From Candidatus Saccharimonadota bacterium (GTDB lineage Bacteria; Patescibacteriota; Gracilibacteria; BD1-5; UBA6164), in assembly GCA_963677765.1 (NCBI GenBank), contig OY782392.1, forward strand, positions 780,001 through 812,000: 32,000 nucleotides of DNA. Reading direction: 5' to 3'. Under the pieces are notes generated by a model, which did no database searches, was not told the DNA's origin, and saw only the letters and a list, made by a program, of their open reading frames with translations. The translations under genes were made by a program, and so were the position numbers. Of this stretch, positions 1-32,000 are shown in pieces. Within the stretch, counting starts at the first letter, position 1. Each line of letters starts with the position of its first letter.

Positions 1-1
1 A

Positions 2-70
2 CCAGTTGAACAATTAGTATGAGTACAACAAGTTGATAAATTAGAAGAAGTTTGTTCTAAATATTTATAA
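2..70 (+). CDS. 3' end of an unidentified CDS (partial, runs off the window start)
   Basis: Frame 2 is open from the window edge to TAA at 68-70, with one in-frame TGA at 20-22. A terminator hairpin follows directly. It is too short to name. Confidence 0.3.
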
Positions 71-71
71 T

Positions 72-106
72 AAAAAAACTAGATTTTAAAAATCTAGTTT
101 TTTTTA
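72..106. terminator. Bidirectional intrinsic terminator (A-tract, CTAGATTTT/AAAATCTAG palindrome, T-tract)
   Basis: A perfect inverted repeat at 79-87 / 89-97 is flanked by an A-run and a T-run. It sits between two convergent CDS ends. The pilC stop codon (104-106) lies in its T-tract. Confidence 0.75.
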
Positions 107-1222
107 TATTACATTTACCATATTAAAGAAAGGTAACATTATAGCCATTATTAGTACTCATACTATAGATCATACTATTACAATTACTAGTGGTTCTATA
201 GCTGTTTGTATATTTTTTACTATGTTATCAATTTCTTTATTATATTTTTTTCATATTTTTATAAGAAGACTATCTAGTTTTCAAGTAGATTCTCATATTT
301 TTACTATAGAAGCTAACTCTATAGGAAATAAGAAGTTTTCTTTTCATGTATGTATTTCGTGAACTCACATAAGCTTACTAAGTTCAACTCATTTACTAAC
401 TCTAGAATTTATTTCTTTTAAAGCTTTTTCATAATAATCATTTTCTAATGCCTTTGAACTTATTTCTAATGATTTATTAATTATAACTCAACTTTTTAAT
501 AATATTCATAAACTATTAACAAATAATGCTAATGTTTTCTTTTTTATAAGAGGTCAAAATATAGGTATTCTTAGTATAAAATTATCCCAGAATATTTTTG
601 TTTTTTTATTGGTTTTGAAAATTATAACTCATATTATGAAAAAAATAATTCATAAAACTATATATATTATATTTTCTTGTATAAAGGTTGATGTATCAAT
701 TACTCATTGAGTTAATGCTGGTAAATTTACTTTTGAGTCTATATACATTTTTTGTATTTTTGGTATTACATAAACCATAAACACACCTATCATTATAATA
801 GATAAACTTACTATAACTATAGGGTAAATAAGTGCTCAAATTATTTTTCATTTTAATTCTTGAGATTTTTCTTCTTTTTCTTTTATTGTTTCTATAGAAT
901 CTCATAATTTTCATGTAACTTCTCCCATTTCTACAATAGAAACATCAAATACTCAAAAAGATTTATTATTTTTTGCAAATATTTCACTTAAACTATCTCA
1001 TTTATTTATATCATCTACTATTGTTTTTAATAATAATTTTAATTTTTTTTCTCTAGTTTGATACATTATTATCTTAAATGCATTTATAAGAGGTATTCAA
1101 GATTGAAGCAAATTAGATAATTGCTCCAAAAGATTAATTTTTTCTTTTGAGCTTATTTTTATGTTTGATTTATTATTAAATTTCTCTTTTATTTTTTCAA
1201 GAAATTGATTAATTTTTTGCAT
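104..1222 (-). CDS. pilC: Type IV pilus / type II secretion platform protein PilC (GspF family), 372 aa
   Basis: Table-25 translation of 1222->104 is uninterrupted (1119 nt). It shows two GspF-type repeats: LSNLLQSGIPLINAF...VEMGEVTGKLGDSIETI and IELASIVKIGESTGKLDSLL...IEPLVIVIVGSIVGVLIMAIMLPFFNM. Hydrophobic TM stretches are also present. Confidence 0.85.
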
Positions 1223-1320
1223 CAATACTAAATTATAGTTAATTTATATTATTTTATCATTTTCCTTGAATTTTTTCAAAAAATAATATACTTAAAATAT
1301 AATTATTAAATATTTGATTT

Positions 1321-1740
1321 ATGTTTAAGTTTTTTAATGTTACAAAAAATAATCAATATAGAGATATAGATGAAGAAGAATATATTGATGAAGAAATAGA
1401 AAATCAAGAAGTAGGTCAAGTTGCTATTGATATATTGGAAACAAAAAATGAAATGATTTTATTATCACCAATAGCTTGAGTTGATTTAGATGATGTTGAT
1501 ATATCATATAATGATCAAATTTTAACTATATCTTGATATAGAAAAAGACCTGATATCTTCTCAAAAGATATAATTGTTAAGAATAGTGAATGTTTTTGGT
1601 GAGAATTTACCAGAAATATAATACTTCCAGAAAATCTAGATTTTGATAATATAAAAGCAAATTTAGATAATAATTTACTAGTTATAACTATACCAAAAAT
1701 TAGTTTTTCTAGTAGGCATATAAGAGTTGAAAAAATTTAA
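1321..1740 (+). CDS. Small heat-shock protein, Hsp20/alpha-crystallin family, 139 aa
   Basis: ATG 1321 to TAA 1738-1740 with 3 in-frame TGA=Gly. The alpha-crystallin core reads GQVAIDILETKNEMILLSPIAGVDLDDVDISYNDQILTISGYRKRP...FWGEFTRNIILPENLDFDNIKANLDNNLLVITIPK. Confidence 0.85.
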
Positions 1741-1757
1741 TATTAATATAATTTACT

Positions 1758-1988
1758 GTGATATTTAAGAGGAAATGAGTTCATGCATGAGCAAGAAAAA
1801 TAGATAAAATAGTTACATGAGTTATAGTATGAACTGCAGTAGCTTCTATGGTATGATTATCAAAAACAAAAAAATGAAAAAAAATCACTCAAAAATTATG
1901 AGAAAAGGGAACATGATTATTTAAAAAGTCATATAGCTACTTTGGTAAATGCTTAGTTTGAACTATTAATTTTTTAAAGAAAAAATAA
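1758..1988 (+). CDS. Small YtxH-like Gly/Lys-rich membrane or stress protein (about 76 aa); start codon uncertain (GTG 1758)
   Basis: The frame is open under table 25 from GTG 1758 to TAA 1986-1988, with 11 in-frame TGA. The segment KIVTGVIVGTAVASMVGLSKTKKGKKITQKLGEKG resembles the YtxH hydrophobic helix plus basic tail. It lies 18 nt downstream of hsp20. No in-frame ATG is present. Confidence 0.45.
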
Positions 1989-1989
1989 T

Positions 1990-2718
1990 ATGAGAAATAA
2001 ATTCTTATTATCATTTGTTATATTTTTTATATTAACACCATATACTTTTTCATGTAAATATGAATCTGAAATTTCTCAATGTAATTCTCAAATACAAAAA
2101 TTTGTTCCAAAAAATTGATGAAATTATATATATAATGGATCATCTATAAAAAGTTTTGAAGATTTTGTTTGTTTGCAAGCTGCTCCTGAAACAAGAGTAG
2201 CTCAAATTGCTTTGGATTTGAATTTTAAAGAAATAGATGAAGAAGTAGATACTTATATAAAAGATTTAGAATCTCAAAAAAATAGATTTTTCTGAGAAGG
2301 TTCTAGTTGAAATTATTTTGATGCTGTTAATTTTATATCTGATAAAGTTTCTGAATTCGAAGGTAAATATAGAGAGGCATGTGTAAAAAGCTTGCAAGAA
2401 ACATCAGAGTGTACTAATAATTATGCTTATGATTTAGAATGAGAACAAAAGTCTGTAGGAGTTTCTACTGCTATAGAATATTTAGCTGAATGATGAGATT
2501 GTTATGAACTAATAAATATAAAAAAGGATATAATTTCTAGTGTTTCTTATAATATATTGTTACTTAATCAAGCTCAAGTTCAAAAGGATCAGCAAACACT
2601 TTATGAACAAGATAATAGAACAAAATATAATAAATTAATTGATATTATGATGATTAATTTATGATATATTGAAAGAATTTGGCAAAAAACACCAAGTTTA
2701 ACTAAAAATCCATTATAA
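1990..2718 (+). CDS. Secreted or lipid-anchored Cys-rich hypothetical protein, 242 aa
   Basis: ATG 1990 overlaps the preceding stop (TAATATG). The N-terminal signal peptide is MRNKFLLSFVIFFILTPYTFSC. The frame runs uninterrupted under table 25 to TAA 2716-2718. I recognise no family motif. Confidence 0.6.
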
Positions 2719-2750
2719 AAAAACAAGAAGTATTACTTCTTGTTTTTTTG
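2717..2750. terminator. Bidirectional intrinsic terminator
   Basis: Stem AACAAGAAG / CTTCTTGTT with loop TATTA, flanked by an A-run and a T-run. It sits between convergent CDSs. The stop of the minus-strand gene (2733-2735) lies in the loop. Confidence 0.8.
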
Positions 2751-4271
2751 TTTTGTTCAACAATAAGGACATATTTTCATATCTTTTTTTATAGATTTTT
2801 TACATTTTTCACATTTTTTTCTTGTTGTTTTTCTGAAAAGTATAAATATAAGAATAAAAAATATTAATATTAATCATGCAAACATAAAGAAATAAGGATT
2901 TAATCATACATATTTTACTTTATAGTTTACTTGAAATTCTTCTGCAGAGTTAAATTCTATATTTTTTCATTCATAATTTTCATATCAAATCTCAATTACA
3001 GCACTTACATTTTTTTGTTCTAATTTTTCATTTACTCTTTGCCAAGGGAATATCATTCATATGTCAGCAATATTTTGATTTGTATAATACTCAGATGGAG
3101 TCCAATATTTTATTATCTTTTTACCATCTTCATCATAATCTTCATATGGAAATCATTTCCATTCACTAGTATATATTCTTTTTGTGTTTGGTAAAATATT
3201 TCATCAACCATCATTAATAGGAATATAATCAACAATTTTTTCTCATGTTATCATTCAATTTTGATCTTTTATAACTTCTTTTCAGATTCATTTTATTTGA
3301 TTACCATTCTCATCTATTAGAGTTATTTTTCATTCTGGTTTTACATGAGTATTTCAATTATTTTCAAATGGAATGCTTATTTCTATATTAAAATCTTCTT
3401 CTTTTTCTTCATTATTTGTAGCTAATTGATTATTATCTTCATTTGAGTTATTTTCTTGATTTTCATTATTATCTTCTTCTTGCTCCAAAGCTAAATTAGA
3501 GTTATTTTCTAAAGTTAACTCAGTATTTTTATTGTTATTTTCTATACTTATATTATCTCAATCTTTTTCTCATCTGTTTGAAACTATTTCAATTGCTTTT
3601 TCGAAATAAACAGTATCAAAACATTTTCAATCTGTGTCACTACTTGTAAAATCTCAGAATCTACAAACATCTTTAGAGCTAATGTTATTATCTCATCTAT
3701 CTTTTGTCCAATCATATCAACCTCATGATGAACCTGTTCATATATTTATTTCAGGCTCTCAAGGTCAAGCATTATCAATTATTTCTCAATCTACATTTAC
3801 TAATAACAATACTCAATAATCAGCATTTATTTGTACTTTTGATCAATTAATTGATCATTCATCTCATGATGTTTTAAAGAAAACAGCTCAATAATGTCAT
3901 CCTGGAACTGCATCAGTTGGTACTTCTATTTGAAATGTTATGTCATATTCTTCTAATCATCATATAACAAAACTATCAGTATCTATAGTAATCCAGCTTG
4001 CCAATTCTTGATTTGGATTTACTAATTCACTTTTTCTCACAAATGTTGGGTTTCAATATGAATCTCTAGATTCAAAATCAGATACTGAAGTTGTTATATT
4101 GTATGAACCAGTAGAGTTATTTATTAATTTTGCTGATTTTGTAACTATTTCTCATGGTTGAGCTTCTATTTCATATCTAATAGGACTAACTACAAGGTCA
4201 ATATTAGCATTTACACTAGATATATTTATACTAAAAAATAGTAAAACTAAGCTAAATAATAATTTTTTCAT
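2733..4271 (-). CDS. Cell-surface protein resembling WxL-interacting proteins (DUF916/WxLIP_PGBD-like N-domain, second beta domain, TM anchor, C-terminal zinc ribbon), 512 aa
   Basis: The ORF is 1539 nt under table 25, with signal peptide MKKLLFSLVLLFFSINISSVNA. The N-domain reads IDLVVSPIRYEIEAQPGE...SWITIDTDSFVI..EEYDITFQIEVPTDAVPGGHYGAVFF, which fits the DUF916 pattern as I recall it. An acidic Asn/Glu linker follows. The TM helix is PYFFMFAGLILIFFILIFILF, and the tail is CEKCKKSIKKDMKICPYCG. Confidence 0.7.
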
Positions 4272-4382
4272 ATATTTTTAAATTATTTAAATTATTTAAT
4301 AATCCTAATAATATTAAAAATATTTCAAAAATCAAAAAATACCTCTAATTTAGAGGTATTTTTTTAAAATTATTTTTTATAA

Positions 4383-5045
4383 TTAGAAATTACCAGTTAC
4401 AGTAAAAGTAATTTCATCAGTATAGTCACCAGCTGGAGTTTCAGCATCAACATCAACTTCAACAGTAAAAGTTACATCAGCAACAGCATTATCATCTAAT
4501 TCTGGTTTATTTGTTTCGTAAATTTTATGTTCTGTTGTATTATCAGTTACTTCAGTAGCAGTTAAATCACCAGTACTTGTAAATGTACCAATAGTTGAAT
4601 CTACTGCATTTGCAGTTGAAGCATAAGTATAATTATCACCATTAGTGTTATTTATAACAATAGAGTTATCAGAAGTATTAACTAAACCTCCATTTGCAGA
4701 TCTAGCAGTAATTGTAACACCATTTGCTGCATTTGTACCAACTTCGATATCAATACTTGCACTTTCAGCAGTACCAGGATTAATATTACCTAATGCAATA
4801 ACTGAATCAGATAATGTCATATTTAAAGTAGGTAATACAGAAGCAGTTACTTGAACACCAGAAACTGTACCAGTTGCAGTACCAGGAAAATTATCATCCC
4901 AAACTACATTTGAGTCAAAAGCAGCTTGACCTTGTACACCAGCAACACCAATATTAGTAGCTGCGAAAACATTTGCAAAATTTGTCATTGTAATAGCTGT
5001 AATTCAAGCAACAGCAAAAGCTTTTTTTATTTTTGTTTTTAACAT
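4383..5045 (-). CDS. Abundant secreted beta-rich surface protein, WxL-domain-like, 220 aa
   Basis: I extend the track ORF 4383..4988 upstream to ATG 5045, adding MLKTKIKKAFAVAGITAITM with one TGA=Gly; this gives a signal peptide ending VFA/A. The composition is Thr/Asn/Gly/Val-rich and the C-terminus is PAGDYTDEITFTVTGNF, reminiscent of WxL-domain ends. Its only TGA codon is in the signal peptide. Confidence 0.8.
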
Positions 5046-5199
5046 AGTATATGTTTAAAAATATAATATAAATAAATTTTTATTTTAATATCTCAAGAAA
5101 TTTAATTTGAATTTCTTAAGTACAAATATATTCTAGCATATTTATTTTTATAAAGTCAAAAAAAAAGCAGCTTTTTTATAAAAAACTACTTTTTAATTA

Positions 5200-8100
5200 T
5201 TAATAATCAAAAATTATATCAAAATCTATATTTCAAGAATAGCTTCATGCTGCTATATTTTCATTTATATTAGCTCAAAACCTTATACTATAAATATAAG
5301 TATTTTTTTCTCAGTTAATATTTATATTTTTTGCTTGATTTACTATTAATTGGTTTTGATTAATAGTATTTATTGTATTTGTAATAGGTTCTCAGTCATA
5401 TCAAAAACCATTAGTTCAATTCCAATCACTTATGTTTAATCAAGAATAATTTAATTCTCATGATTTATTCATTTGTATATCAAATCAAGCTCAAACAGTA
5501 TTTACTGTTAAAAATAAATCAGGGCTAAATTTATTTGTATTCAAATTATTTATATTTCATATATCAATTATAGAATCAGATATTAAAAATTCTGGTTCAT
5601 CTATATAGAATATTAAATCTTTTGTACTAGTGTTTCATCAATTGTCATCAATACTAAATCTAAATCTATATTTACCATATCATAGGGGAGATATATTATA
5701 TGTAGATTGGTTTATATTATTACTTACTGATGTCTGGTAAGTTGCTAATATATTATTTCACCAACTTGTTCAATTCCATTTACTTAGGCTTGCATTTATT
5801 GTATTCAAATCTAATCAAGACTCATCATTATAATCTATTGTTATACTTTTATTAGAATTTGGTAATAAATCATTATTACTAATATTATTATAATCTATTG
5901 TTGGTTCTGTAGTATCTAAAATAGCAGTATAATGAATTATACCATTCCATATACGAGGAGAAAATGAGTTTTGAAATTCAAATACTTTTCAAATACCTTC
6001 TCTAAATATTATAAAAGCATCTTGTGCAAATATATTTCACTCAGTAGTTCAATTTGTATAACGTATTCAAGAAGTTCATACTTCTGTAACATAAAATGAA
6101 TAAGTTGTATTTGAGTTTAAATTCAAATTATCTATTTCTATATATGTAGGATTTCATTCTCATGCTCATGTAAAAGGGTAATCTCAAACCAAAGTCCATC
6201 AGGCTGCAGCACTTTCAAATCATGCATAACTTCATTGTTTATAGTAAACACGAAGACTAGAGTTAGCAGTTCTTGTATTTATAGATAAGGCATTTACTAT
6301 TACATCGTTATTTAGTATATCTATTTCAAACATATTACCAGCTTGTCAATTTCATCATGCGAATGTAGTTTCTAATCATGATTCTACATTTCAAGTAAAA
6401 TTTACATCATAATGAATTATCCCATTCCATATACGAGGTCTCCATGTATTTGGTCAAAACTCATTACCAACTCATATTCATTCTCTAAATATTAAAAAGT
6501 TATCTTGCGAATATATAGATCATTCAGTAGATCAGTTTGTATAACTTAAATTATCTCAACTGGTATTTAGTATATAAAATGAATAATTACTATTTTCATT
6601 TAATATTAATTCATCAGTTTGAACAAATGTTTGTCATGGTCATCAATTAAAAGAATAATCTCATAACAAAGTCCATGCAGTTGAATCTGTTTCAAATCAG
6701 GCATAAGTTCATGATTTATAATATATTCTTATATCTCATGTTTGAGTTTGAGGGTTTATTGAAAATCATTTTATAGTTATTGATTGATCTAATACTTCTA
6801 TATCAAACATATTTCATCTTTGTCAGTTTCATCAAGCAAATGTAGTTTCTAGTCATGCAAATATTCATCAACTACAATCTCAGTGAAATATGTTATTTCA
6901 ATTTAAATTTACAAATCAAGAATCACTAGGTTTTTGCCAATCAAGTTCTACAACAGCTCAACCTCATCTCTCATAATATTCTAATCTTATATTATATATT
7001 TGTCATTGATTTAAATTTATATTTCATGTTACTATTGTAGGTGCCTGATCTACCCATTGATCTATTATTATATTTCAATCTATATAAAGTCTAACTCAAT
7101 CATCTGATCTTGTACGAAATGTATAATTTCATGATTCATCTGCTTGAAATTTTCATTCCCATTCTACTGTAAAATCATCATTTGGTAATTGTTCATTTGG
7201 ACTTAGATTTCACCAATCAAATCTTACTTCATAATCTGTTTGGCTATTTACGAAATTTATTAGATTGTATGGTTCAGTTGCAGTTCATGTATAGTATTTT
7301 CAGCAAAATCAAGGTGTTCATATTAGAGTATTTAAATTCCAATTTGAATCTACATTTGTTCAATTACTACAAAATCATATAGTATGAGTTTCTCAAGGGT
7401 TAATTATCTTGTTATAAGATAAAGGAGTTATTGTATGAATATTTGTATTTTGGCTATAGTTTCATCAATAACTAGATGATAAAGCTTGATCTAACTCAAA
7501 ATTTAATTGCCATCCATTTATTGTAGTATTTCAATTATTAGTTAATGTTATATCTCTACAAAATCATCAAGCCCAACTATTATTAGTTGTTATACTTACA
7601 TCTAATCAATTATCAGTTAAATTATAATCTTGTAAAACTAGTCATCATATATTTTGATAATTTTTAGTTATTAAATTTGATATATATCATATTCAACTAT
7701 CTGCACATAATCAAAAACTAAGAGTTTGTCATACTGAAAAAGTATCAGCATAAGTTCCTGGTGAAGTTATTATATATTCTCATCATCAAAGATTTGTAAA
7801 GTTTCATCACCAACTACTTGTAATATTAGCTCAGTTTAGTTTAAATCATATTTCCCAGTTTGTTATATTAAGAGTAGAATTATTTGTTGCATTAAACTCA
7901 TAACAAAATCATGTATTCCAATAATTTTCATTTGTAGTATTAAATGAAATAGGAGTTTCTTCTAGAGGAGGAGTATAATCTACTATTAGATTAGCTCTAT
8001 ATACTCTTGCATTTCTAGTTCATCAACCAGTTTTCCTATATTTTAATAGTATTCAAAAATTATTAGATTTTATTTCTGTATCACTCCATGTTGTTCACCA

Positions 8101-8544
8101 TAATTCAGTGTTTGAACCATAAATTGTTATATTTTTTGTTGTCTGACTTGCATTATTTGCCAAATTACTTGTATAAGAATCATTTCAATTTTTTGTTAAT
8201 TCAACAGCAAAATCAGTTACTCTAGTACTGCTACCTTGCCATTCTACTTCAATTTGTATTCAATTAATAGTTGATCATACAGGTATATTTTGTGATTTTA
8301 AATCAAATCATTTTAATATAAGAGTATCAGAAACACTAGGATTATTAGACATATTTACTTGTCAAAAACTAGAGGTATCATCTCAGATTATATTGTTTGC
8401 ATTAGTCCATGAAAAATCTCAGTCATTTATTACTTGTACTTCTCATACATAATTAGATACTATATCAGCATATGATATATTGTTTATACTAAAAATAATT
8501 GAAGTTATTATAAAAAAGTATATTAACTTAATAATTTTCCTCAT
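5200..8544 (-). CDS. Giant secreted adhesin-like protein, 1114 aa: signal peptide, N-terminal beta domain, 2x CBM2-like modules, PA14 domain, 2x unnamed ~160-aa repeat, C-terminal Ig-like region
   Basis: The ORF is 3345 nt, uninterrupted only with TGA=Gly and carrying dozens of TGA codons. The CBM2-like modules read YWNTGFCYEFNATNNSTLNITNWEIGFKLNGANITSSWGGNF and SWAGGFCRDITLTNNGNTTINGWQLNFELDQALSSSYGGNY. The PA14-like stretch reads DFTVEWEGKFQADESGNYTFRTRSDDGVRLYIDGNIIIDQW...IYNIRLEYYERGGGAVVELDW. Confidence 0.85.
5930..6860 (-). repeat. Intragenic tandem duplication, 2 units of ~477-480 nt (159-160 aa), diverged
   Basis: TGTAGTTTCTA(A/G)TCA occurs at 6364-6378 and 6841-6855. CCATTCCATATACGAGG occurs at 5942-5958 and 6422-6438. 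Both protein units run GLETTFAGGNGQxGNMF(D/E)I ... YYKxG(T/S)YAGFE ... YSFY ... YTNG ... PRIWNGIIHY. Confidence 0.85.
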
Positions 8545-12962: not shown

Positions 12963-14846
12963 ATGAATTTAGAAAAGATTAGGAATTTTTGTATAATCGC
13001 ACATATAGACCATGGTAAATCAACTTTGGCTGATAGATTATTAGAAATAACATGAACTATTGATAAAAGATGAATGAAGCATGGACAAATGCTTGATACA
13101 ATGGATTTGGAGCAAGAAAGATGAATAACTATAAAGCTTCAACCAGTTAGAATGCAATGGAAGTGATATGAAATGAATATAATTGATACTCCAGGTCATG
13201 TTGATTTTCAATATGAAGTTTCTAGAAGTTTAGCTTCTGTAGAAGGTGCTTTATTGATTGTTGATGCTACTCAATGAATTGAAGCTCAAACCCTTAGTAA
13301 TGTTTATATGGCAATAGAAAATGACTTAGATATCATACCAGTTATAAATAAAATAGATTTACCAGCTGCTGATGTTGATAAAGTAAGTGAAGAAATAATA
13401 AATTTACTTGGTTGTGATAAATCAGAAATTATACCAGTATCAGCTAAAACATGAGAAAATGTTGAAACAGTATTAGATGAAGTTATATCAAGAATTAGTT
13501 CTCCTCAAGTATTTGAAGAAAGTTTATGAACAGACAAAGATGAATTAAAAGCTCTAGTTTTTGATAGTCAGTATGATCCTTATAGAGGTGTAGTTAGTTA
13601 TGTAAAAGTTTTTAAATGAGAAATTAAAAAATGAGATAATCTAACTTTCTTGCATACAAACAAAAAAATAGAAGCATTGGATGTAGGATATTTTTCTCCT
13701 AGTTATGTTAGTGATAAAAAAATTGAAAATTGATCTGTTTGATATGTTGTTACTGGTTTAAAAAACTTGGAAAATGCAAAAGTATGAGATACTTTATGGA
13801 AACCAGAGAATAAAGAATGACCAAAAGATAAAGCAGAAGATGCAAAACCTATAGAATGATTTAGTGAAGCTAAACCTTTTATATATGCAGGTATATATCC
13901 TATGGATAGTAGTGAATACCCTCAATTGAAAGATGCAATGGAAAAGCTTATATTAAATGATTCTGCATTAAGTACTGAATCTAGTGTTTCTCAGGCTTTA
14001 TGACATGGTTATAGATGTGGTTTCTTATGATTATTACACTTGGATATAGTAAAAGAAAGGCTTTTTAGAGAGTTTGATATGGATGTTATAATGACATCTC
14101 CTCAAGTAACTTATAAAATAAAATTTTATTGAGATAAATCATCTGAATATAATAGATTTCATCCTGAAGTTTTCGAACTTGAATGAAAAAAATATACTTA
14201 TATTTATATATCTAATCCAGAAGATTTACCTGATAGAGAAAAATATTTAACTATTGAAGAACCAATTGCAAAAGTAGAAATAATTACCCCAAGTGAGTAT
14301 GTTTGAGCTCTTATGCAACTGTCTCAAGAAAGAAGAGGTAAATTTGTAAATCAACATTTTATAGATACAACTAGAGTTATGATAGTTTATGAATTACCTA
14401 TGAATGAATTAATAGGGGATTTTTATGATGAAATAAAATCTTTATCTAGTTGATATGCATCTATGAACTATGAATTTATAAAGTATAGTGAAGATGATAT
14501 GGTAAAATTAGATATAGTTATTGCTGATGAAAAAGTGGAAGCGCTATCTTTTATCACTCATAGAGATCAAGCTCATTATGTTTGATGAAAACTTTGTGCA
14601 AAATTAAAAGAAACAATACCAAGAGCTTTGTTTTCGATAAAAATACAGGCTGCTGTTTGATCTAAGGTTGTTGCTAGAGAAACTCTTAGTGCTCTTAGAA
14701 AAGATGTTACTGCTAAGCTTTATGGTTGAGATATTACAAGAAAGAAAAAGCTTCTAGAAAAACAAAAAAAAGGTAAAAAGAAAATGAAACAATTTGGTAA
14801 AGTTAGTTTACCTAGTGAAGCTTTTGTTAATTTATTAAAAAAATAA
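12963..14846 (+). CDS. lepA: Translation elongation factor 4 (LepA), 627 aa
   Basis: Motifs are [37 protein letters not shown] (that Gly is TGA at 13122), [17 protein letters not shown] and the NKID box. The C-terminal LepA region is [18 protein letters not shown]. Confidence 0.95.
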
Positions 14847-17416: not shown

Positions 17417-17494
17417 GGTGCCCGTAGTTTAGTTGGTTAGAACATCAGGTTGTGACTCTGAGGGTCGTGGGTTCGAGTCCCATCGGGCACCCCA
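17417..17494 (+). tRNA. tRNA-His (anticodon GTG) with encoded G-1 and encoded 3' CCA
   Basis: I folded the cloverleaf by hand. G-1 is followed by acceptor GTGCCCG/CGGGCAC and D stem GTTT/GAAC. The anticodon stem is TCAGG/TCTGA with loop TTGTGAC. The T arm is GTGGG-TTCGAGT-CCCAT, followed by C73 and CCA. Confidence 0.93.
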
Positions 17495-17676: not shown

Positions 17677-18822
17677 ATGGCAAAAAATGATTTAACTCTG
17701 TTTGAAGAGTTGTTTGCAGCATCTCCTGAAATTAAATACCCAAAACAAGGAGAAGTTATTTCTGGTACTATTGTTAAAATAGAAAAGAAAAATATTTTAG
17801 TAAATGTTAACAATCAATTTACTGGTTTAGTTGTTTCTAAAGAAGTAGGTAATACTATTGATTTAAATGAATTACAAGCTGGTCAATCTATTGATGTTAT
17901 GGTTTTAGGTGACTCTGTTGAAAGAGGTTTATTAATCCTTTCTCTTAAAAGAGCTAACCAAATCAAAAACTTATCAAATCTTACTAAATATAACGAAACT
18001 AGTGAAATTATTACAGTTAGACCAACTGAAGCTAATAAATGAGGTTTATTAGTTGATATTGATGGTTTAAAAGGGTTTATACCTGTTTCTCAATTAACTC
18101 CAATTCACTACCCAAGAGTTGAAGGAGCTGATCCTGAAAAAATTCTTGCTCACTTAGACGGTTTAGTTGGTGAACCATTCAAAGTTAGAGTTATAAATGT
18201 AGATGAAGCTGGTAAAAAAATCATTTTCTCTGAAAAAGCTGCTATAGAAGAAAACAGAGAAAAAGCATTAACTAACTTAAAAGAAGGTGATGTTGTTGAA
18301 GGTACTGTTTCTGGTATCTTATCATATGGTTTATTCGTTACTTTTGATTGATTAGAAGGTTTAGTTCACGTTTCTGAAATTGATTGGGGACATGTTACAG
18401 ATCCTTCAAAATTTGCTAAAGTTTGAATGAAAGTAAAAGTAAAAGTTATAGGACTTGATAGTGAAAAAATTTCATTATCTATAAAAAGATTAAAAGAAAA
18501 TCCTTGGGATGTTCTTGCTAAAAAATACAAATTAAACGATTCAATAACTGCTCCTATTTCTAGAATTTCTAAATTTGGTGCATTTATGGACTTAGAAGGT
18601 GGAATACAAGGTCTTATCCATTTATCTGAAATTTCTCACGGAGTTGTTAAAGATATTAGAGATCATGTTAAAGTTGGTGAAGAAGTTACTGCTAAAATCA
18701 TCAATTTTGAACCAGAAAAGAAAAGAATTGGTTTATCTTTAAAAGCTTTACAAGAAGCTCCTAAAGAAACTGAAGTAAAAGAAGAAACTAAAGAAGATTC
18801 AAAAGAAGAAGCTTCAAAATAA
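17677..18822 (+). CDS. rpsA: 30S ribosomal protein S1 (four S1 domains), 381 aa
   Basis: Track fragments 17677..18042 and 18427..18822 are in one frame (1146 nt), joined through 3 TGA=Gly. The contexts are ANKGGLLVDI, FDGLEGLVHVSE and AKVGMKVKV. S1-domain motifs repeat. Confidence 0.93.
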
Positions 18823-18949: not shown

Positions 18950-19744
18950 ATGAGTAAAACTGTATTAAATTCAATGTTTGAAAATTTATTACATATTGGT
19001 AATAAATCAAATTACTGGAATCCAAAAATGAAATCTTATATCTATGGATCAGTAAATGGTATCCATGTTATAGATTTAACTAAAACTGCTGAAAAATTAG
19101 AAGAAGTTAAAGCTGAATTAAAAGAAATTCACGAATCAGGTAAAAAAATCTTATTTGTTGCTACTAAATTACAAGCTAGAGATGCTGTTTCAAAAATGGC
19201 TACTGAATCTGGTCACTACTATGTAGCTGAAAAATGGGTTCCTGGTTTATTAACAAACTTTAAAACAATCAAAAAAAGAATTGCTACTTATGTTAAATTA
19301 TCAAATGATTTAGAAAATGGAGCTTTTGATATGTTAACAAAAAAAGAAAAAGCTGCTAAATTATTAGAACACGAAAAATTAGATAAAGCATATGCATGAG
19401 TAAAAGATATGAAAAAAATGCCAGATGTTATATTTGTAGTTGACGGTATTTATGAAGATCAAGCTATCAAAGAAGCTAATTCATTAAAAATCAAATCATT
19501 TGCTATATTAAATACAAATGGTGATGATACTTTAGTTGATAATTGTATACCAGCTAACACTAATGCTGTTAAATCAATTGAATTCTTAGTAAATGAATTA
19601 TCTACTTCTTTATCTGGTACTGCTAAAAAACCAGCTGCTGCTAGAGTAAGAAAAGTTGATGATAAAAAAGTTAGTGGAGAAAAAAAAGCAACTAGAAAAC
19701 CAGCTGCAAAAAAAGCTCCAGCTAAAAAAACTGAAGAAAAATAA
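18950..19744 (+). CDS. rpsB: 30S ribosomal protein S2 with Lys/Ala-rich C-terminal tail, 264 aa
   Basis: Track fragments 18950..19399 and 19409..19744 are in one frame, joined by a single TGA=Gly (AYAGVKDM). The S2 motifs are HIGNKSNYWNPKM and ILFVATK. Confidence 0.95.
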
Positions 19745-20150: not shown

Positions 20151-20936
20151 ATGGCAATTACAGCTGCTCAAATAAAAGAATTAAGAGAACTTACAGGTAT
20201 CGGTATGATGGAATGTAAAAAAGCTCTTAGCGAAACTGATGGTGATATGGAAAAAGCTATTGAAGAATTAAGAAAAAAAGGTTTAGCAAAAGCTGCTAAA
20301 AAAGCTGATAGAGATACTTTTGAAGGTGGTATTAAAATTATTACTGAAGCTGGTAAAGCTTATATCGTATCTGTTTCATGTGAAACTGATTTCTTAGCTA
20401 ATTCTGATAAGTTTAAAGCTATGTTAGAAAAAGTTGCTGAATTCTTAAAAGAAAACGGTGCTGATTCTAAAGAAGCTGCTCAAGAATTCATCAACTCTAA
20501 CTATTCTTTAGAAATGGGTGAAAACTTACAAGTTTCTAACTATAAAATAGTTGAAGGTGATGTTGTAGCTGACTATGTTCACTCTAACGGTAAATTAGCT
20601 GCTTTAATAGTTGCTAAAGCTGGTACTGATGAAGAAAAAGCTAGGCAAGTTGCTATGCACGTAACTGCAAGTAATCCTGAATTCTTATCTCCAGAAGAAA
20701 TTTCTGATGAAGTATTAGAAAAAGAAAAATCAATTCAATTAGAAATGATGAAAAATGACCCAAAAATGGAAGGTAAACCAGATGATGTTTTATTAAAAAT
20801 TATCGAAGGTAAAATGGGGAAATTCAAATCAGATATTTCTTTAACTGAACAAGCATTTGTTATGGATCCAAATATGAAAGTTAAAACTTTCATCGGTGAA
20901 GGTAACTTACAAGCTTTTTACAGATTTTCTATATAA
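20151..20936 (+). CDS. tsf: Translation elongation factor Ts, 261 aa
   Basis: This is an intact standard-code ORF. The UBA-like N-terminus is ITAAQIKELRELTGIGMMECKKAL, with CETDFLANSDKF further in. It has no TGA codon; all 17 Gly are GGN by hand count. Confidence 0.97.
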   Translation: MAITAAQIKELRELTGIGMMECKKALSETDGDMEKAIEELRKKGLAKAAKKADRDTFEGGIKIITEAGKAYIVSVSCETDFLANSDKFKAMLEKVAEFLKENGADSKEAAQEFINSNYSLEMGENLQVSNYKIVEGDVVADYVHSNGKLAALIVAKAGTDEEKARQVAMHVTASNPEFLSPEEISDEVLEKEKSIQLEMMKNDPKMEGKPDDVLLKIIEGKMGKFKSDISLTEQAFVMDPNMKVKTFIGEGNLQAFYRFSI

Positions 20937-20948: not shown

Positions 20949-21245
20949 ATGGCAGATATAAAAAAGCTTCAAAAGGAAGCTTTCGAAAATAAAGTAAATA
21001 AATGATTCAATACTACAAATATTGATATGGAATTTAACTTAATTTATTGAGAGTTAGCCGAAGCTTTTGATGCCTACCATAGAAATAGATGAAATGTTTG
21101 AGAAGAACTTGCAGATGTTATGATTTTCTTACTTTGATTATCAGAAATGCTTTGAGTTGATCTTGAATCAGAAGTCTTAAAAAAGATGGAAATCAATAAA
21201 AATAGAATTTATAAAAAATCATGAAGCTGACATATAAAATCTTAG
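20949..21245 (+). CDS. MazG-like nucleotide pyrophosphohydrolase domain protein, 98 aa
   Basis: The sequence is FNLIYGELAEAFDAYHRNRGNVGEELADVMIFLLGLSEMLGVDLE, showing the EExxE/D helix pattern of all-alpha NTP-PPases. It is uninterrupted only with TGA=Gly and ends in TAG at 21243-21245. Confidence 0.7.
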
Positions 21246-21257: not shown

Positions 21258-21332
21258 AGTCCCATAGTTAAACGGCTATAATTCAGGACTCCAAATCCTG
21301 CGTTCAAGGTTCGATTCCTTGTGGGACTGCCA
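21258..21332 (+). tRNA. tRNA-Trp (anticodon CCA) with encoded 3' CCA
   Basis: Acceptor is AGTCCCA/TGGGACT. The anticodon stem is CAGGA/TCCTG with loop CTCCAAA. The T arm is CAAGG-TTCGATT-CCTTG, followed by discriminator G and CCA. Confidence 0.93.
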
Positions 21333-21342
21333 TTAAACCAAT

Positions 21343-23393: not shown

Positions 23394-24653
23394 ATGAAAT
23401 TTAACGAATTAGGTCTTGTATGACCTTTACAAAAAGCATTGGATAAAGAATGATTTGATACTCCAACAGAAATACAAGAAAAAGTTATACCTTTAGCTTT
23501 AAAATGAAAAGATATATTAGCTAGTGCTCAAACAGGTAGCGGTAAAACTTTTGCTTTTGTATTACCTATATTACAAAGCCTTTATAATGAAAGAAAAGAG
23601 CTAGAAGAACAAGGTAAAGCAAAAAGAAAATTACAAGCTCTTATTATAGCTCCTACTAGAGAGTTAGCTATACAGATAGGAGATTCTATGAAACTATATT
23701 GTTCTAATGTAAATCTTAAAAGTACTACTATTTATGGTTGAGTTAATGATTTTCATCAAAAGAAAGCTATAGAAAAATGAATAGATATATTAGTTGCTAC
23801 TCCTTGAAGATTGGAGGACTTAATTAATCAATGAGTTATAAAACTATCATATATCGACTATTTAGTATTAGATGAAGCTGATAAAATGTTGAATATGGGA
23901 TTTTTACCTGATATAAAAAAGGTAATGAAAAGAATACCAGAAAAAAGGCAAACTTTATTTTTCTCAGCTACTATGCCAAAAGAAATAAAAGAATTAGCTT
24001 CTAGTTTATTACATTGCCAAGAAGAAGTAAAGGTTCATAAAGTTGCTTCTACTACAGAAAATATAAATCAACAAGTTTATCATGTAAAAGCTAGTCATAG
24101 AAGACAATTACTACAATACCTTGTAAAAAAAACAGAATTTGATTCTATACTTGTTTTTGTTAGAACAAAAGATGATACAGAATATGTTTTAGAATATATA
24201 AAATCTATATGAATAAAAGCTGATAATATTCATAGAAATAGATCTCAAAATGCTAGACAAAGAGCTTTGAAGGCATTAAAAGATGGAGAAATAAAAGTAT
24301 TGGTTGCAACAGATATAGCTTCTAGATGATTGGATGTAAATGATTTATCATGTGTTATAAACTATAATATACCATTAGAACCAGAAGATTATGTTCATAG
24401 AATATGAAGAACAGCTAGAGCTGGTAAAAAATGAGTAGCTATAACATTTTGTATAGATCATGAAAAAGAATATTTAAAAAAAGTAGAAGAAACTATTGGT
24501 AAAAAAGTAAAAGTTATTGATGATGATTCATATAAAAATGAAGTAATACCAAAAACAAAAATACTTTGATATGATAATTTTCAAGAATGATTTAAGAAAA
24601 AACCAAAAACTAACCCAAATAAAAAAAGATATTATTCTAAAAAGAAAAAATAA
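23394..24653 (+). CDS. DEAD-box ATP-dependent RNA helicase (RhlE-like), 419 aa
   Basis: The Q motif region is GFDTPTEIQ. Further motifs are [21 protein letters not shown] (Gly is TGA at 23805), LDEADKM, SAT and HRIGRTARAG (the first Gly is TGA). The C-terminus is a basic tail. Confidence 0.92.
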
Positions 24654-24656
24654 ATA

Positions 24657-24692
24657 AAACCCCTTATCAAGTTATGATAGGGGGGGTTTTTT
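24657..24692. terminator. Bidirectional intrinsic terminator (10-bp stem CCCCTTATCA / TGATAGGGGG)
   Basis: An A-run, stem at 24660-24669 / 24675-24684, then a T-run. It is shared by convergent CDSs. Confidence 0.85.
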
Positions 24693-25056
24693 ACTCAATG
24701 AGTTCGAGATAAGCTTTGAACTGCTTTCTCAAAACAGTGAGTTTAAAGGGTCTATCAACTACAATAGTTCTTACTTTTGCAGTAAAGCCAATTTCTTCAT
24801 CTTCGGTTCCAGGAGTTTTTCCTTTCATAACCTCAAATGATTTAAAACTTACCAGAAATTCTGTAATTGAGTCAAATAGGCTACCACTGAAATACAGACG
24901 AAGGAGAATAGGTTTTTCTCCCAGGTCTATATAGTTGTGATTGCTCTTTTTTTCTACTCTTTTTTTGAAGTTTTGGTAGATTTTTTCTTTTTGCTCATTG
25001 CTCAAATCACCTTTTTGTATTGATTGAGGAAGAGCCATATGAAGATGTTTTTTCAT
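24691..25056 (-). CDS. Hypothetical protein, 121 aa, compositionally atypical (possible horizontal acquisition)
   Basis: This is an intact standard-code ORF with no TGA; all 6 Gly are GGN. A strong SD (AGGAG) lies 6 nt upstream of the ATG. It uses CTG/CTC/CCC/GGC/CGT codons that are rare in neighbouring genes. I recognise no family motif. Confidence 0.7.
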   Translation of the reverse strand: MKKHLHMALPQSIQKGDLSNEQKEKIYQNFKKRVEKKSNHNYIDLGEKPILLRLYFSGSLFDSITEFLVSFKSFEVMKGKTPGTEDEEIGFTAKVRTIVVDRPFKLTVLRKQFKAYLELIE

Positions 25057-25181
25057 CTTTTACTCCTTTTTGTTTCAAAAAATGTTTAATTATTGTAAAA
25101 TAAAAACTTTTTTAGTCAATTTTATCTTGCATAATATTATTTTTTGTCTAATATAAAAAAAATAAATTATAAACTTTTATT

Positions 25182-25964: not shown

Positions 25965-26002
25965 AAAATAACATAGAATAAAAATTCTATGTTATTTTTT
26001 TA
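25963..26002. terminator. Bidirectional intrinsic terminator (13-bp stem AATAACATAGAAT / ATTCTATGTTATT)
   Basis: Stem at 25967-25979 / 25984-25996 between an A-run and a T-run. The SulP TAG stop (25987-25989) lies inside the 3' arm. Confidence 0.85.
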
Positions 26003-27750
26003 TAAATCATTTTTTCTCATATTTTCTCTATTTTTTTGTTTTTTGCTTTGTATTTTAATAATGGTTTTAAGTCTAGATCTTTTTTTTCATTTTGTTTTTT
26101 TAGATATTCTATTATATCTTGTAATTTTTCAAATACTTTATCTTTTCATATAGATTCAATAAAACCTACATTATCTAATTTATTTAATACTTTTATCCTA
26201 AGATTACAGTAATAAACTTTTATCAATTGTTTTCTAAGTCTATAATCTAAATCTCTAAGAACTACATAGCTTGAAGAATCTATATTTCATACCCATTCGA
26301 AGTCAAATATAACTATCTTAAGATCTGGTTTTTCAGATATATAATTTAATATTTTGCTCTCAAAATGTCATGCATTAGCAAAAAATAAATTTCAATCAAC
26401 TCTAAAAACAGATACATATTTTGATTTTTTAATTTTGAAAAAATTAGCATCTCTAAATATTCAGTTTTTATACATTGAAACTTCAATCACCTTTGGTTTC
26501 ATAGATCTATATATATGAAAAGCAAGAGATAATATTACTCATACAGCTATTCACATTTCTACATTTGGACTAGTAAACATTGTTGCTAGAAATGTAATAA
26601 TGGCAACATAAGCATCTTTTTTTTGTACTTTCCATGCTTCTATTATAGGTTCAATTTTTATTAAATCAGAAACAGCAATTATTATTATTGCAGCTAAAGT
26701 AGCAATTGGTAAATGATATAACATTGGAGTTAAATATATCAATGTTATTGCTACTATTATTCATGTAACAATAGATGCTGCTCATGTTTCTGCTCCTGCT
26801 CTAAGATTTACAGCAGTTCTAGAAAAACTTCATGCAACTCAATATCATCAAAAAATTGACGATCACATATTAGCAGCAGCTTGTCATAATAATTCTCTAT
26901 TTGCTGATACTTTTTGTTTTGTTTTAACAGCTACTCATTTAGCAACTGCTATAGATTCTGTAAATCATATAAGTCATACTATAAATGCAAATAACATTAC
27001 TTTGTATGTATTTTCTCAAAATAGTATTTCTGTAGTAAAATTTAAATTCAGATTTGGTAATCAACTAGGTATTACTCAAACAACACTTCATCAATAATTT
27101 ATTTCAAATCATATTTGATATGATACAGCTATTGATATTATCAATAAAAATAATACTCTTGGAACTTTTGGGAGAAATTTTTTTAGTATTAACAAAAATA
27201 ATATTGCTATAAATCAAAATAAAAATGTTATTAAGTGTAATTCATCTAATGATTTTATGATAATTTGCCAAGTATGTTCAAAAATTCAAAGTCATTTAGT
27301 TATAGAAAATCAAAAAATTTTTTCAGCTTGAGCTATTATTGTTATAAGTGCTATTGCATTTGTAAATCATACAATTACTGGGTGTGATAAAAACTCTACT
27401 ATTATTCACATTCTAAAAATTGATAGTATCAAATATGTTAATCACATAAAAAATGCCATCATAGAAGCATAAATAATATATTGCTCCATTGATTGTAATC
27501 ATAGAGATCATATAGTTGCTGCAGTCATTATTGATACTATAGTAACAGGTCAAGTAGACATTTGTTTACTAGATCAAAATAATCATCATATTATAACTCA
27601 TACTAAAGCAGTATAAAGTCATATATAAATAGGCAATCATGCTAATCAAGCATATGCCATTGATTGAGGTATGATAACTAGAGCTACTGTTATTCATGCT
27701 AATAAGTCAGCTCTAAAAAATGTTTTTATTTTATTTTTTAATTCTGTCAT
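25987..27750 (-). CDS. SulP-family inorganic anion transporter with C-terminal STAS domain, 587 aa
   Basis: The ORF is 1764 nt under table 25 and is in frame with track fragment 26551..26742. Motifs are LLAGITVALVIIPQSMAYAGLAGLP, TGPVTIVS, NRELLGQAAANMGSSIFGGYGVAGSFSRTAVN and YHLPIATLAAIIIIAV. The STAS-like end is DANFFKI...VFRVDGNLFFANA. Confidence 0.92.
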
Positions 27751-27825
27751 AGTGTTTTAATGACTATTTATTATATTAATTTTATCATATATATTTTAAA
27801 AAATAAAATATTAATATTTTTATAT

Positions 27826-28027
27826 TTGCTTTTTGATTTTTTATATATATAATCCGCACATAAATTTGGAACTTCCTTTTAAGGACTCAATATAATGGGA
27901 TATAATTAATTTGGGTCAAATAGAGGATTATGGCGTAAAATTAATTATATTATATTGATTTTTTTAAAAAGAAGTTTTTCACTTAAATGATGAAGAACTT
28001 GCTTTATATGCTTGTTCTTTTTTTATA
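27826..28027 (+). promoter_or_regulatory. Candidate promoter plus structured ~170-nt leader or small RNA ending in a terminator-like hairpin just upstream of the DeaD-like gene
   Basis: TTGCTT (27826-27831), a 16-nt spacer, then TATAAT (27848-27853). A GC-enriched segment follows with nested pairings CCGCACATAA/TTATGGCG (27854-27863 / 27928-27935) and GACTCAA/TTGGGTC (27884-27890 / 27911-27917). Next is hairpin AAGAAC..GC / GC..GTTCTT (27993-28019) plus a T-run, 25 nt before ATG 28052. Confidence 0.35.
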
Positions 28028-28051
28028 TTTTTAAAATTTAAGTTATACAAA

Positions 28052-29788
<1,737 letters not shown>

Positions 29789-29789
29789 T

Positions 29790-29823
29790 AAAAAAAACTA
29801 GAATTTAAATTCTAGTTTTTTTT
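29790..29823. terminator. Bidirectional intrinsic terminator (CTAGAATTT/AAATTCTAG palindrome)
   Basis: A perfect palindrome at 29798-29815 is flanked by an A-run and a T-run. It is a near-twin of the terminator at 72-106. Confidence 0.8.
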
Positions 29824-29824
29824 A

Positions 29825-31432
29825 TTATCTTTTAATTTTAAAAACAATATTATCTTTTATTTTTGATATTTTATTTAAAAAGAAAGGTCTAATGTTTATC
29901 TCAACATTACTTATTTTTCATGTATTTATAAGTATTTTTTCAGCTTCATCTTTATCTAATCATACTACTATACTTTTTAATCTATCTACATAATTATTGT
30001 TTTCAGATAAAAAGTTATGTATAAAGAAAGCTTCTACTAATGCTGTAGTTTTTACTGAAAATGGGTAGTTTGAAGTACTAAGAGTAGGAGATATTATTCT
30101 TAAAGAATCTTCATTTATTTCTAGTAATTCTTCTATATTATCAAGTATTCAATCTCTTACAGTTTGTCTAAGCTTTGTTAATAACATTTCTTTATTATAT
30201 GAATATGTTGTTATTTTTATTGATGCTCATAATTTGAAACTATCAGTTTCTTCTCATATATTTATTTGATCTTCTCATACTACATTAAATTCTGAATATT
30301 TTGTAACTCAGTCTACAGGAAATATTTCATATTGTACATTATTTCTTTCGTTGTTATCTTTTATGTCGTTTTTTACATCTTCATATATTTGTGTTTCAAG
30401 CTTTCATCTAAGTATAGTTTTAGCATTTTCTATATCTTGTTTTGTAACAACTTTTTTATAATTATCATTTCATCATTTAAATTGACTTATACTTTCAGCA
30501 TATATTTTATCACTATCTTCTTTTAGTCATGGTAAAAACATTGCTATTCATGTATCTATATTTCAATTAGATCATATTATATTTCATTTGCTATCTCTTA
30601 ATCTAGATTTTGCATAAGCATCTATTTCTCAAGGTATTACAGCTCATGTTGAACTTACACTACTAGATGGTATAACAACATTTCATTCTATTAAATACAC
30701 TAATCAAGTTTGAGTTTCAAGTCTAGTGCTATCAATTAATTCTATTTCATCACTAAACATATTGTACAGTTTTACTTTTCATCTAGATGTTGAAACTGTA
30801 TCTTCAGATACTCAAGATGTTCAGAAACTTGAATCTATAAAAATTTCTTTTGTTATTTTCTTTAGTCTTATAGTGTTTTCATCTAATACTAATTGATCAT
30901 TTTCTGATTCTGTAAATATAAAATTTTTTCATTTAGTTTTTACTTCTATTTTTGGTGTTATTTCAATATGTGTTTCATTTACCGCAAAGTAAAAGACAAA
31001 TATTAGTAAAAATAATGATAAAAATAAAAAACTTATAAAATATCATATTTTTGAGTTTCCATATTTATCTCTATATCTAGATATTATATTATCATTATTT
31101 TTTTGTAAGAAAATATCTTTTATTTCTCTAAAATAGTTTTTAAATGTGTATAAAAAATATTCAAAAAAACTATAGTTATATTCTATTAAATCAGGATTAT
31201 TAGTTATAGAGTATTTTATTCATAATCTTTTTCATATTTTTTTCGCTGTTTTATCATTAGTAATAATAACTAAATCTTTTTTTCAAGATTTTGCTTTTAA
31301 TATTCTAAGTGATGTATAATTATGTAAAACTGGATGTCAAAAAGGGAATTCTAAAATTATTTCTCTTTCTTTAGTATTTTTAATTTTTATTATAATATCT
31401 ACTATAGAATCATTCTTATGAATTTTTATCAT
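29825..31432 (-). CDS. Hypothetical single-pass membrane protein (small cytoplasmic N-domain, TM, large extracytoplasmic region), 535 aa
   Basis: The ORF is 1608 nt under table 25. The TM is IGYFISFLFLSLFLLIFVFYFAV at about residue 130. I do not confidently recognise a family. Confidence 0.7.
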
Positions 31433-31559
31433 TTTTTATTTTAAAATTATTACTATTTTATTTGTTTTAGAATATCTATTTAATCTTTTTTTTCAAGTTA
31501 ATTATTACTTTACAAAATATCTATTTTGGCTACACTTTTATTATATTTATAGTTTAACT

Positions 31560-32000
31560 TTGTTTGTTTTGCAAGAGATACTGAAAATAATTGATTTAAT
31601 AGAAAGTTCTATCAAAGAAAATCCTGAAAATTCACTTACAGCATGAGAAATAATTGCTGATAATTATGATGAAAAAGTAGATCAATATAGAAATATTATA
31701 AATAATTCTCAAGAATGGCTATTAAATTATCAAAATGATTTATCAACAAGTACTTGAATATCAAACTTAAAAATTAAGTTTACTAATGCTTCTGGATATT
31801 TTATAGAAATACCAAAATCACAAACATCAAAAATTCCTGATAGTTTCATACATAAACAAACACTTGTAAATGCTTCGAGATATATAACTATAGAACTAAA
31901 AGAATTTGAACAGAAAATGCTTGAAGCACAAAATGAAAAATCTTCAAGGGAATATAATATATTTTTAGATATTAGAGAAAAAATATTAGATTCTTACTCT
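31560..32000 (+). CDS. mutS: MutS-family protein, 5' boundary uncertain, 3' end beyond the window; alignment begins in the core/clamp region
   Basis: The sequence STGISNLKIKFTNASGYFIEIPKSQTSKIPDSFIHKQTLVNASRYITIELKEFEQKML matches the MutS TGI..LKI.FN...GYYIEV ... R.QTL.NAERYIT.ELKE.E motif block. No ATG is in frame between the divergent gene (ends at 31432) and this block. Possible starts are TTG at 31560 or 31569. Confidence 0.7.

Follow-up and report, generated by a model that had tools for sequence, protein, structure and literature searches.

UGA Read as Glycine in a 32-kb Window of an Uncultured Candidatus Gracilibacteria (BD1-5) Genome

Introduction

The reading of UGA as glycine (translation table 25) is known from the Gracilibacteria and the Absconditabacteria (SR1), and the present work concerns this recoding in a 32-kb stretch of DNA (positions 780,001 to 812,000 of contig OY782392.1; hereafter the window) with a GC content of approximately 24%, assigned to an uncultured Candidatus Gracilibacteria (BD1-5/GN02). 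In BD1-5, UGA = Gly was proven by proteomics, which also detected tryptophan at UGA, rare but seen (PMC4032931), and prfB, the gene encoding release factor 2 (RF2), is missing from all available BD1-5 genomes (PMC6851277). A tRNA-Gly with the anticodon UCA is present in the Gracilibacteria that Codetta called as UGA = Gly, while two exceptions possess RF2 and lack such a tRNA; the same study proposed an SR1 variant of code 25 in which CGA and CGG are additionally read as tryptophan, as well as CGG = Trp for some Gracilibacteria (PMC8629427). Within the Patescibacteriota, one family using UGA = Trp has been reported, and UGA can be read by a tRNA-Trp(CCA) whose anticodon stem has 4 bp, a form that code-25 organisms are expected to avoid (PMC13092985). 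An original prediction, made from the letters of the window, had proposed that UGA is read as glycine here; the sections below show how the locus compares with these systems.

Open Reading Frames and Stop Codons

Under the standard bacterial code (table 11), the window yielded just 11 open reading frames (ORFs) of at least 80 aa, totalling approximately 4.6 kb or about 14% of its length. When TGA was treated as a sense codon, open stretches of 100 aa or more increased from 14 to 55, and the longest of them grew from 268 aa to 1117 aa; treating TAG as sense gave no comparable gain in the window. With TGA as sense, a non-overlapping gene set covered approximately 90% of the window; it consisted of 27 complete genes, two tRNAs, and one MutS-family gene that is partial. 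The original prediction had stated that table-11 ORFs fragment or miss genes and that a sense reading of TGA restores single frames, and the gene set bore out both statements: under table 11, rpsA and rpsB were each split in two, DEAD-box helicase 1 was reduced to one 108-aa piece, and lepA, helicase 2, and the SulP gene were missing from the ORF list. The genes on which the following analysis mainly draws are given below, with in-frame TGA positions where relevant.

104..1222, minus strand: PilC/T2SS-F pilus platform protein (Pfam T2SSF), with 21 TGA against 2 GGN codons
8663..9487, plus strand: RsmA/KsgA, in which all three glycines of the S-adenosylmethionine (SAM) motif E-V-G-P-G-Y-G are TGA (8807, 8813, and 8819)
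12963..14846, plus strand: LepA/EF4, with 24 in-frame TGA codons, including 13122 in 'ERGITIK'
17677..18822, plus strand: RpsA (bS1), with TGA in 3 of 31 glycine codons, including 18040 in 'KGG'
18950..19744, plus strand: RpsB (uS2), TGA-poor (1 of 12)
20151..20936, plus strand: Tsf (EF-Ts), with TGA in 0 of 17
23394..24653, plus strand: DEAD-box helicase 1, with TGA 23805 in 'TPGR'
25987..27750, minus strand: SulP anion transporter with a STAS domain, with 43 TGA against 2 GGN codons
28052..29788, plus strand: DEAD-box helicase 2, DeaD/CshA-like with a DbpA domain, with TGA 29087 in 'HRIGRTGRAG'

The coding frames held 9,356 codons, among which TGA occurred 448 times (4.8%) and internal TAA or TAG not once. 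Random codons drawn by base composition would contain approximately 54 TAA, 18 TAG, and 18 TGA per 1000, and the lack of in-frame TAA and TAG alongside 448 TGA is far beyond chance. The 27 complete genes terminated with TAA in 23 cases and with TAG in 4. Pfam matches ran end to end across in-frame TGAs, for instance in Sulfate_transp (1-380 of 380), RrnaAD (3-262 of 263), and GTP_EFTU together with LepA_C, and LepA ended at the position that matches residue 598 of the 600-residue Aquifex homolog, indicating that the TAA and TAG stops are retained. TGA is thus a sense codon in the window, and TAA and TAG are its sole terminators.

Since nearly every gene appears broken under table 11, the same picture could in principle arise if the TGAs were real stops in decayed, pseudogenised, or mis-assembled DNA, or stops bypassed by programmed readthrough or selenocysteine insertion. 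We give this explanation next to no credence. Zero TAA or TAG accompanied the 448 in-frame TGAs, though TAA is expected three times as often; the frames remained intact over as many as 1114 codons; the TGA positions were kept as TGA or GGN across 58 related species; and the essential genes rpsA, rpsB, and lepA were among those affected. Regarding selenocysteine and readthrough, a frequency of 4.8% of codons is incompatible with either, and cysteine stood opposite TGA only once in 181 aligned pairs with homologs, and TGT or TGC did so in 3 of 2598 ortholog comparisons (both data sets are described in the following section).

Assignment of UGA to Glycine

To compare the window with standard-code organisms, TGA was kept as 'X' in the query proteins and the residue opposite each X was tallied in homologs of solved structure (Protein Data Bank), using the best homolog per protein for five proteins, namely LepA, SulP, RsmA, helicase 1, and PilC. 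Glycine was found opposite TGA at 59 of 109 aligned positions, compared with a background glycine content of 6.9% (binomial p≈3e-39); for example, 16 of 20 aligned TGAs faced glycine in Aquifex LepA and 11 of 20 in the PilC structure 3jc8. Outside this set, glycine faced TGA at 3 of 3 aligned positions in RpsA and 5 of 7 in helicase 2. In the five-protein set, the positions without glycine held its usual substitutes (Ala, Ser, Pro, Asp, Thr, and similar residues). All seven TGA coordinates cited by the original prediction, i.e., those listed above for RsmA, LepA, RpsA, and the two helicases, proved exact, in frame, and in the peptide context described, and their placement on invariant glycines was corroborated by the glycines of KsgA 'EIGPGIGALT', LepA 'ERGITIK', the helicase motifs 'TPGR' and 'HRIGRTGRAG', and S1 'KGG'. 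Likewise, the alignment check that had been put forward gave TGA columns that were mostly glycine and never tryptophan in the homologs.

Protein composition pointed in the same direction. If TGA was not counted as glycine, many proteins contained 0.2-1% glycine; SulP retained 2 glycines in 587 residues, and a 535-aa protein retained one. With TGA = Gly, the glycine content was 6.7% in TGA-poor genes and 6.9% in TGA-rich genes. At the codon level, the window was compared with its orthologs in 58 other Gracilibacteria, TGA being masked in the window as well as in the relatives. The codons of the relatives opposite window TGA were TGA in 49.7% and GGN in 30.4% of cases, every other class accounting for at most 2.5%, and at least one GGN ortholog was present at 190 of 299 window TGA sites, with no site showing a TGG ortholog. 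Among the relatives, TGA was thus exchanged for GGN codons and in no case for TGG, in support of the reading of UGA as glycine.

These data also bear on the possibility that UGA encodes tryptophan (table 4), either through a tRNA-Trp(UCA) encoded elsewhere or through a tRNA-Trp(CCA) able to read UGA. A low GC content and a small-genome lineage are the usual setting for such recoding, one family of the kind was mentioned above for the Patescibacteriota, tryptophan was rarely observed at UGA in the BD1-5 proteomics, and the tRNA-Trp of the clade carries A24 (U11:A24), the state that the G24A change of the classic Hirsh UGA suppressor produces in E. coli. We nevertheless rejected this reading, which we regard as highly improbable, on alignment, composition, and ortholog codons. 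Tryptophan was opposite TGA in 0 of 109 positions with the best homologs and in 0 of 181 when all pairs were considered; none of the 2598 ortholog codon comparisons put TGG opposite a TGA of the window, whereas the TGG codons of the window faced TGG in 95% of cases and TGA never. A tryptophan reading would moreover result in proteins with just 0.2-1% glycine and up to 11.6% tryptophan, the maximum in the window being reached by a 1114-aa protein.

Some points weigh against the glycine assignment. About 45% of the aligned TGA positions faced residues other than glycine, and the GGN control was higher, with 75% facing glycine. ARAGORN and Rfam detected no tRNA(UCA) in the window, nor did ARAGORN in 10-kb flanks from the 58 relatives. 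The assignment in this organism is drawn from sequence comparison, and the loss of RF2 from its genome, of which 32 kb were analysed, is presumed from the literature. The share of non-glycine residues is expected at variable positions, and the gap to the GGN control probably reflects recent gains of glycine at tolerant sites. Homologs, composition, codon-level orthology, and the lineage presented below constitute four independent lines in support of UGA = Gly (table 25), as originally predicted, the first three being free of any assumption about the code, and we consider this assignment close to certain.

Lineage and Synteny

The Tsf protein contains no TGA and therefore served as a code-neutral query against a genome set in which each GTDB species was represented once. 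The scan returned 58 Tsf loci at 63-91% identity, beyond which identity fell to approximately 40% in Firmicutes. Most of these loci were named Candidatus Gracilibacteria, including the complete genomes CP017714.1 (HOT-871) and CP042461.1, while the remaining ones were labelled Peribacteria, Patescibacteria group, or bacterium. The nearest representative, JASMTS010000014.1, showed approximately 84% DNA identity over 9.8 kb aligned, and a lookup of the identical Tsf protein in a large protein-to-contig index gave no record; judged by these results, the organism is to be regarded as a separate species within the known clade. In gene order, the block tRNA-His(GTG)–rpsA–rpsB–tsf–tRNA-Trp(CCA) was kept in essentially all 58 relatives, and the window was collinear with complete Gracilibacteria chromosomes such as the two named above. 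Besides rpsA, rpsB, and tsf, the block in the window contained the following elements.

17418..17494, plus strand: tRNA-His(GTG), the first member of the conserved block
20949-21245, plus strand: 98-aa MazG-like pyrophosphohydrolase located between tsf and tRNA-Trp, with all 8 glycine codons TGA
21258..21332, plus strand: tRNA-Trp(CCA) with a canonical 5-bp anticodon stem, which keeps UGG = Trp apart from UGA = Gly

In most relatives, the tRNA-Trp gene is situated approximately 30-100 nt after tsf, and the MazG-like gene looks like a lineage-specific insertion. Table 25 is the code of the Gracilibacteria or Absconditabacteria (GTDB class JAEDAM01), and Tsf identity together with synteny placed the window in this range. 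The original prediction held that the code fixes the lineage among SR1/Absconditabacteria and Gracilibacteria. The Gracilibacteria part of this claim stood, and the SR1 part was set aside by the Tsf relatives and the synteny; on these sequence comparisons, the window is assigned to the Gracilibacteria and not to SR1.

The synteny is also relevant to the question of whether the window could belong to a phage or mobile element with a recoded stop instead of to a cellular chromosome. Stop-codon recoding is known in phages, and some of the metagenome contigs matching a tRNA(UCA), described in the next section, are phage-like, e.g., the contig L123 with its terminase-like ORF. However, the window encodes RpsA, RpsB, EF-Ts, LepA, RsmA, and MutS, phage structural genes were not found in it, and its collinearity extends to the complete chromosomes CP017714.1 and CP042461.1. 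A phage or mobile origin is accordingly given a negligible probability, and the window is taken as chromosomal DNA in which UGA is read as glycine.

tRNAs and Decoding Machinery

ARAGORN and Rfam identified tRNA-His(GTG) and tRNA-Trp(CCA), and no other tRNAs, in the window. The original prediction had used the CCA anticodon of the only tRNA-Trp as an argument against UGA = Trp. While tRNA-Trp(CCA) is indeed the sole tRNA-Trp of the window, the argument is weak by itself, because a tRNA(UCA), or a second tRNA-Trp, could sit elsewhere in the genome and because a tRNA-Trp(CCA) with a 4-bp stem can read UGA. It survived in a strengthened form once the anticodon stem was considered: the stem is a canonical one of 5 bp, from C27:G43 through A31:U39, and a 5-bp anticodon stem was present in 58 of 58 tRNA-Trp(CCA) genes of the clade, so that UGA reading by way of a 4-bp stem was ruled out for the window and all 58 relatives. 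When positions were numbered by simple index on the 75-nt genes, all 58 tRNA-Trp(CCA) genes showed A9 and U11:A24 along with this 5-bp stem.

In the mechanism that we propose from the literature and from the relatives, UGA would be read by a dedicated tRNA-Gly(UCA) bearing the identity elements of glycyl-tRNA synthetase (G1:C72, C2:G71, G3:C70, and U73), and RF2 would have been lost, leaving no competitor for UGA. UGG would remain a tryptophan codon through the canonical tRNA-Trp(CCA). In the window itself, under very strong A+T pressure (a GC content of about 24%), UGA has become the majority glycine codon, and the highly expressed translation genes retain GGU.

A scan of metagenome contigs for a tRNA combining Gly acceptor identity with a UCA anticodon gave 79 matches, of which about a dozen carried an ARAGORN-confirmed tRNA(UCA) together with a strong TGA-as-sense signature in their ORFs. 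The best match (L122) was a 144-kb contig with a GC content of 25% in which TGA is sense. Its tRNA(UCA) had an acceptor stem nearly identical to that of a Gracilibacteria tRNA-Gly(UCC) and adjoined a sigma-70 gene in which TGA encodes the invariant glycines of 'QEGSLG' in region 2 and 'EEIG' in region 4. By these sequence features, L122 represents the expected decoding machinery on another contig reading TGA as glycine, not in the genome studied here. Several low-GC matches with tRNA(UCA) were unrelated tRNA-rich contigs, and a BLAST comparison of the ORFs of the tRNA(UCA) matches with the Gracilibacteria loci recovered almost no shared genes. In four other contigs of the scan, L123 (JACCDY011504751.1), L132, L133, and L155, a tRNA(UCA) whose acceptor stem is of the Gly type was accompanied by ORFs that stay open only when TGA is sense. 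At least one of the four, L123, looks phage-like by its terminase-like ORF, and the tRNAs of L132 and L133 have an atypical D-arm. These four contigs may be phages with their own UGA-decoding tRNA-Gly.

Codon Usage and Expression

The glycine codons of the window comprised 448 TGA, 145 GGT, 38 GGA, 7 GGG, and 1 GGC, and TGA therefore accounted for 448 of 639 (70%). Among the 58 relatives, the TGA share ranged from approximately 0.1 to 0.74 and rose with AT-richness (Spearman rho=-0.78 against GC content), which places the window at the high end of the group without making it unique. Within the window, the share was distributed very unevenly among genes. It was 0.10 in RpsA, 0.08 in RpsB, and 0.00 in Tsf. 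Two codon-biased genes were equally low, one for a secreted protein of 220 aa (0.06) and one for a protein of 121 aa (0.00), compared with 0.57-1.00 in most other genes and an intermediate value of 0.37 in helicase 2. The two codon-biased genes are as follows.

4383..5045, minus strand: 220-aa secreted protein with TGA in 1 of 18 glycine codons and strong codon bias
24691-25056, minus strand: 121-aa protein with a GC content at third codon positions of 0.28 against approximately 0.09 elsewhere, no TGA, and the only GGC codon of the window

The 220-aa protein had no significant Pfam match; its codon bias predicts very high expression and makes it a candidate for a major surface or pilus subunit. 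The 121-aa protein had no Pfam match and orthologs in 3 relatives only, and it is either highly expressed or recently acquired.

Taken together, TGA made up 80% of the glycine codons in ordinary genes and 6% in rpsA, rpsB, tsf, and the two codon-biased genes (odds ratio 0.016). The TGA-poor genes differed from the others in further codons as well, with GGT at 0.75 vs. 0.15, ATC at 0.22 vs. 0.02, CAC at 0.56 vs. 0.11, and ATA at 0.22 vs. 0.71, and they thus bear the general marks of translational selection. The pattern extended to the relatives: in 56 evaluable loci, i.e., the window and 55 related Gracilibacteria loci, the TGA share of rpsA, rpsB, and tsf was below that of their neighbours in 56 of 56 cases (mean 0.16 vs. 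0.60; Wilcoxon p≈8e-11). Conservation was considered as the cause of TGA avoidance in these three genes and rejected, given that TGA also encodes invariant glycines of RsmA, LepA, SulP, and both helicases. Conserved but poorly expressed proteins freely use TGA at invariant glycines, for instance at all three glycines of the RsmA SAM motif and in the LepA G-domain. Since invariant glycines are freely TGA and the codon bias is a general one, the contrast between TGA-poor and TGA-rich genes reflects expression and not conservation.

One tentative interpretation, which we regard as possible rather than probable, is that in Gracilibacteria UGA would be a mutationally favoured majority codon for glycine and yet a 'second-class' one, purged by selection from highly expressed genes. 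AT mutation pressure would push GGN towards TGA, while selection for speed or accuracy would hold GGU in abundant proteins. If this were true, UGA may be decoded by tRNA-Gly(UCA) at a lower speed or accuracy than GGU is, and a possible cause would be competition from the A24-type tRNA-Trp(CCA) of the clade, which would fit the rare peptides with tryptophan at UGA. A description of UGA avoidance in highly expressed genes was not found in the searchable literature, which did not include the original SR1 study by Campbell et al. (2013); the bias may already have been reported there.

Regarding arginine, the 9,356 codons included 243 AGA, 15 AGG, and 9 CGT, and CGA, CGG, and CGC were absent. The CGA codons of relatives faced window AGA, in keeping with the standard meaning of arginine. 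CGG was very rare in the relatives (L001-L058) and stood twice opposite a conserved tryptophan of the window (LepA of L009 and RpsB of L058), reminiscent of the CGG = Trp proposal for some Gracilibacteria (PMC8629427), although the cases are too few to decide. A reading of CGG as tryptophan was not adopted here, CGG being too scarce in the relatives and missing from the window.

Other Genes of the Window

The remaining annotated features of the window are given below.

2733-4271, minus strand: 512-aa secreted protein with a C-terminal transmembrane segment and a zinc ribbon
5200..8544, minus strand: 1114-aa secreted protein with two CBM_2 domains and a PA14 domain, containing 107 TGA, 13 GGN, and 22 TGG codons
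10998-12836, minus strand: putative metallopeptidase, weakly MATCAP-like (PF08014), flanking lepA
14926-16062, plus strand: putative metallopeptidase, weakly MATCAP-like (PF08014), with a 'HEMTH' motif, flanking lepA
~31599-32000, plus strand: MutS-family gene with a domain IV match, partial and running off the window end

PilC and the 512-aa, 220-aa, and 1114-aa secreted proteins form a surface and pilus cluster on the minus strand (104-8544), and the 1114-aa protein contains an internally duplicated domain of roughly 200 aa. Upstream of the MutS-family match, the space is tight for the mismatch-binding domains of the N-terminus, suggesting a MutS of the MutS2 type or one with a short N-terminus.

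Comparison with Known Systems

The choice of code determines the gene calls of such a genome, as table 11 broke up or missed nearly all genes at approximately 14% coding density and table 25 gave intact proteins at approximately 90%. The code also identifies the organism as a member of the Gracilibacteria (BD1-5), an uncultured host-dependent lineage of the Candidate Phyla Radiation. The data may in addition be useful for models of how a reassigned codon spreads, in which codon capture under AT pressure is set against translational selection; the relevant quantities are the 70% share of UGA among glycine codons, the scaling of this share with AT content over the 58 species, and its avoidance in translation genes.

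The window resembles the table 4 systems of Mycoplasma, Spiroplasma, and insect endosymbionts in that UGA is reassigned in an AT-rich, reduced genome in which RF2 has presumably been lost, the reassigned codon being favoured by AT mutation pressure. In contrast to these systems, where the amino acid is tryptophan, it is glycine here, and no aligned TGA faced tryptophan. The code 25 of Absconditabacteria (SR1) is shared in the meaning of UGA and in the extreme rarity of CGG. The differences from SR1 are that the close relatives found here are all on the Gracilibacteria side, that the window has no CGA, CGG, or CGC codons, and that CGA of the relatives faces window AGA, in line with the standard meaning of arginine. 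With the known code-25 Gracilibacteria, the window has in common UGA as a sense codon aligned with glycine, UAA and UAG as the only stops, UGG as tryptophan with a tRNA-Trp(CCA), and a low GC content. We agree with the original prediction that the recoding is not new in itself: UGA = Gly is established in Gracilibacteria, and the window adds a species-level instance and not a new principle. It shows no difference in kind from its code-25 relatives and lies at the extreme end of their UGA use.

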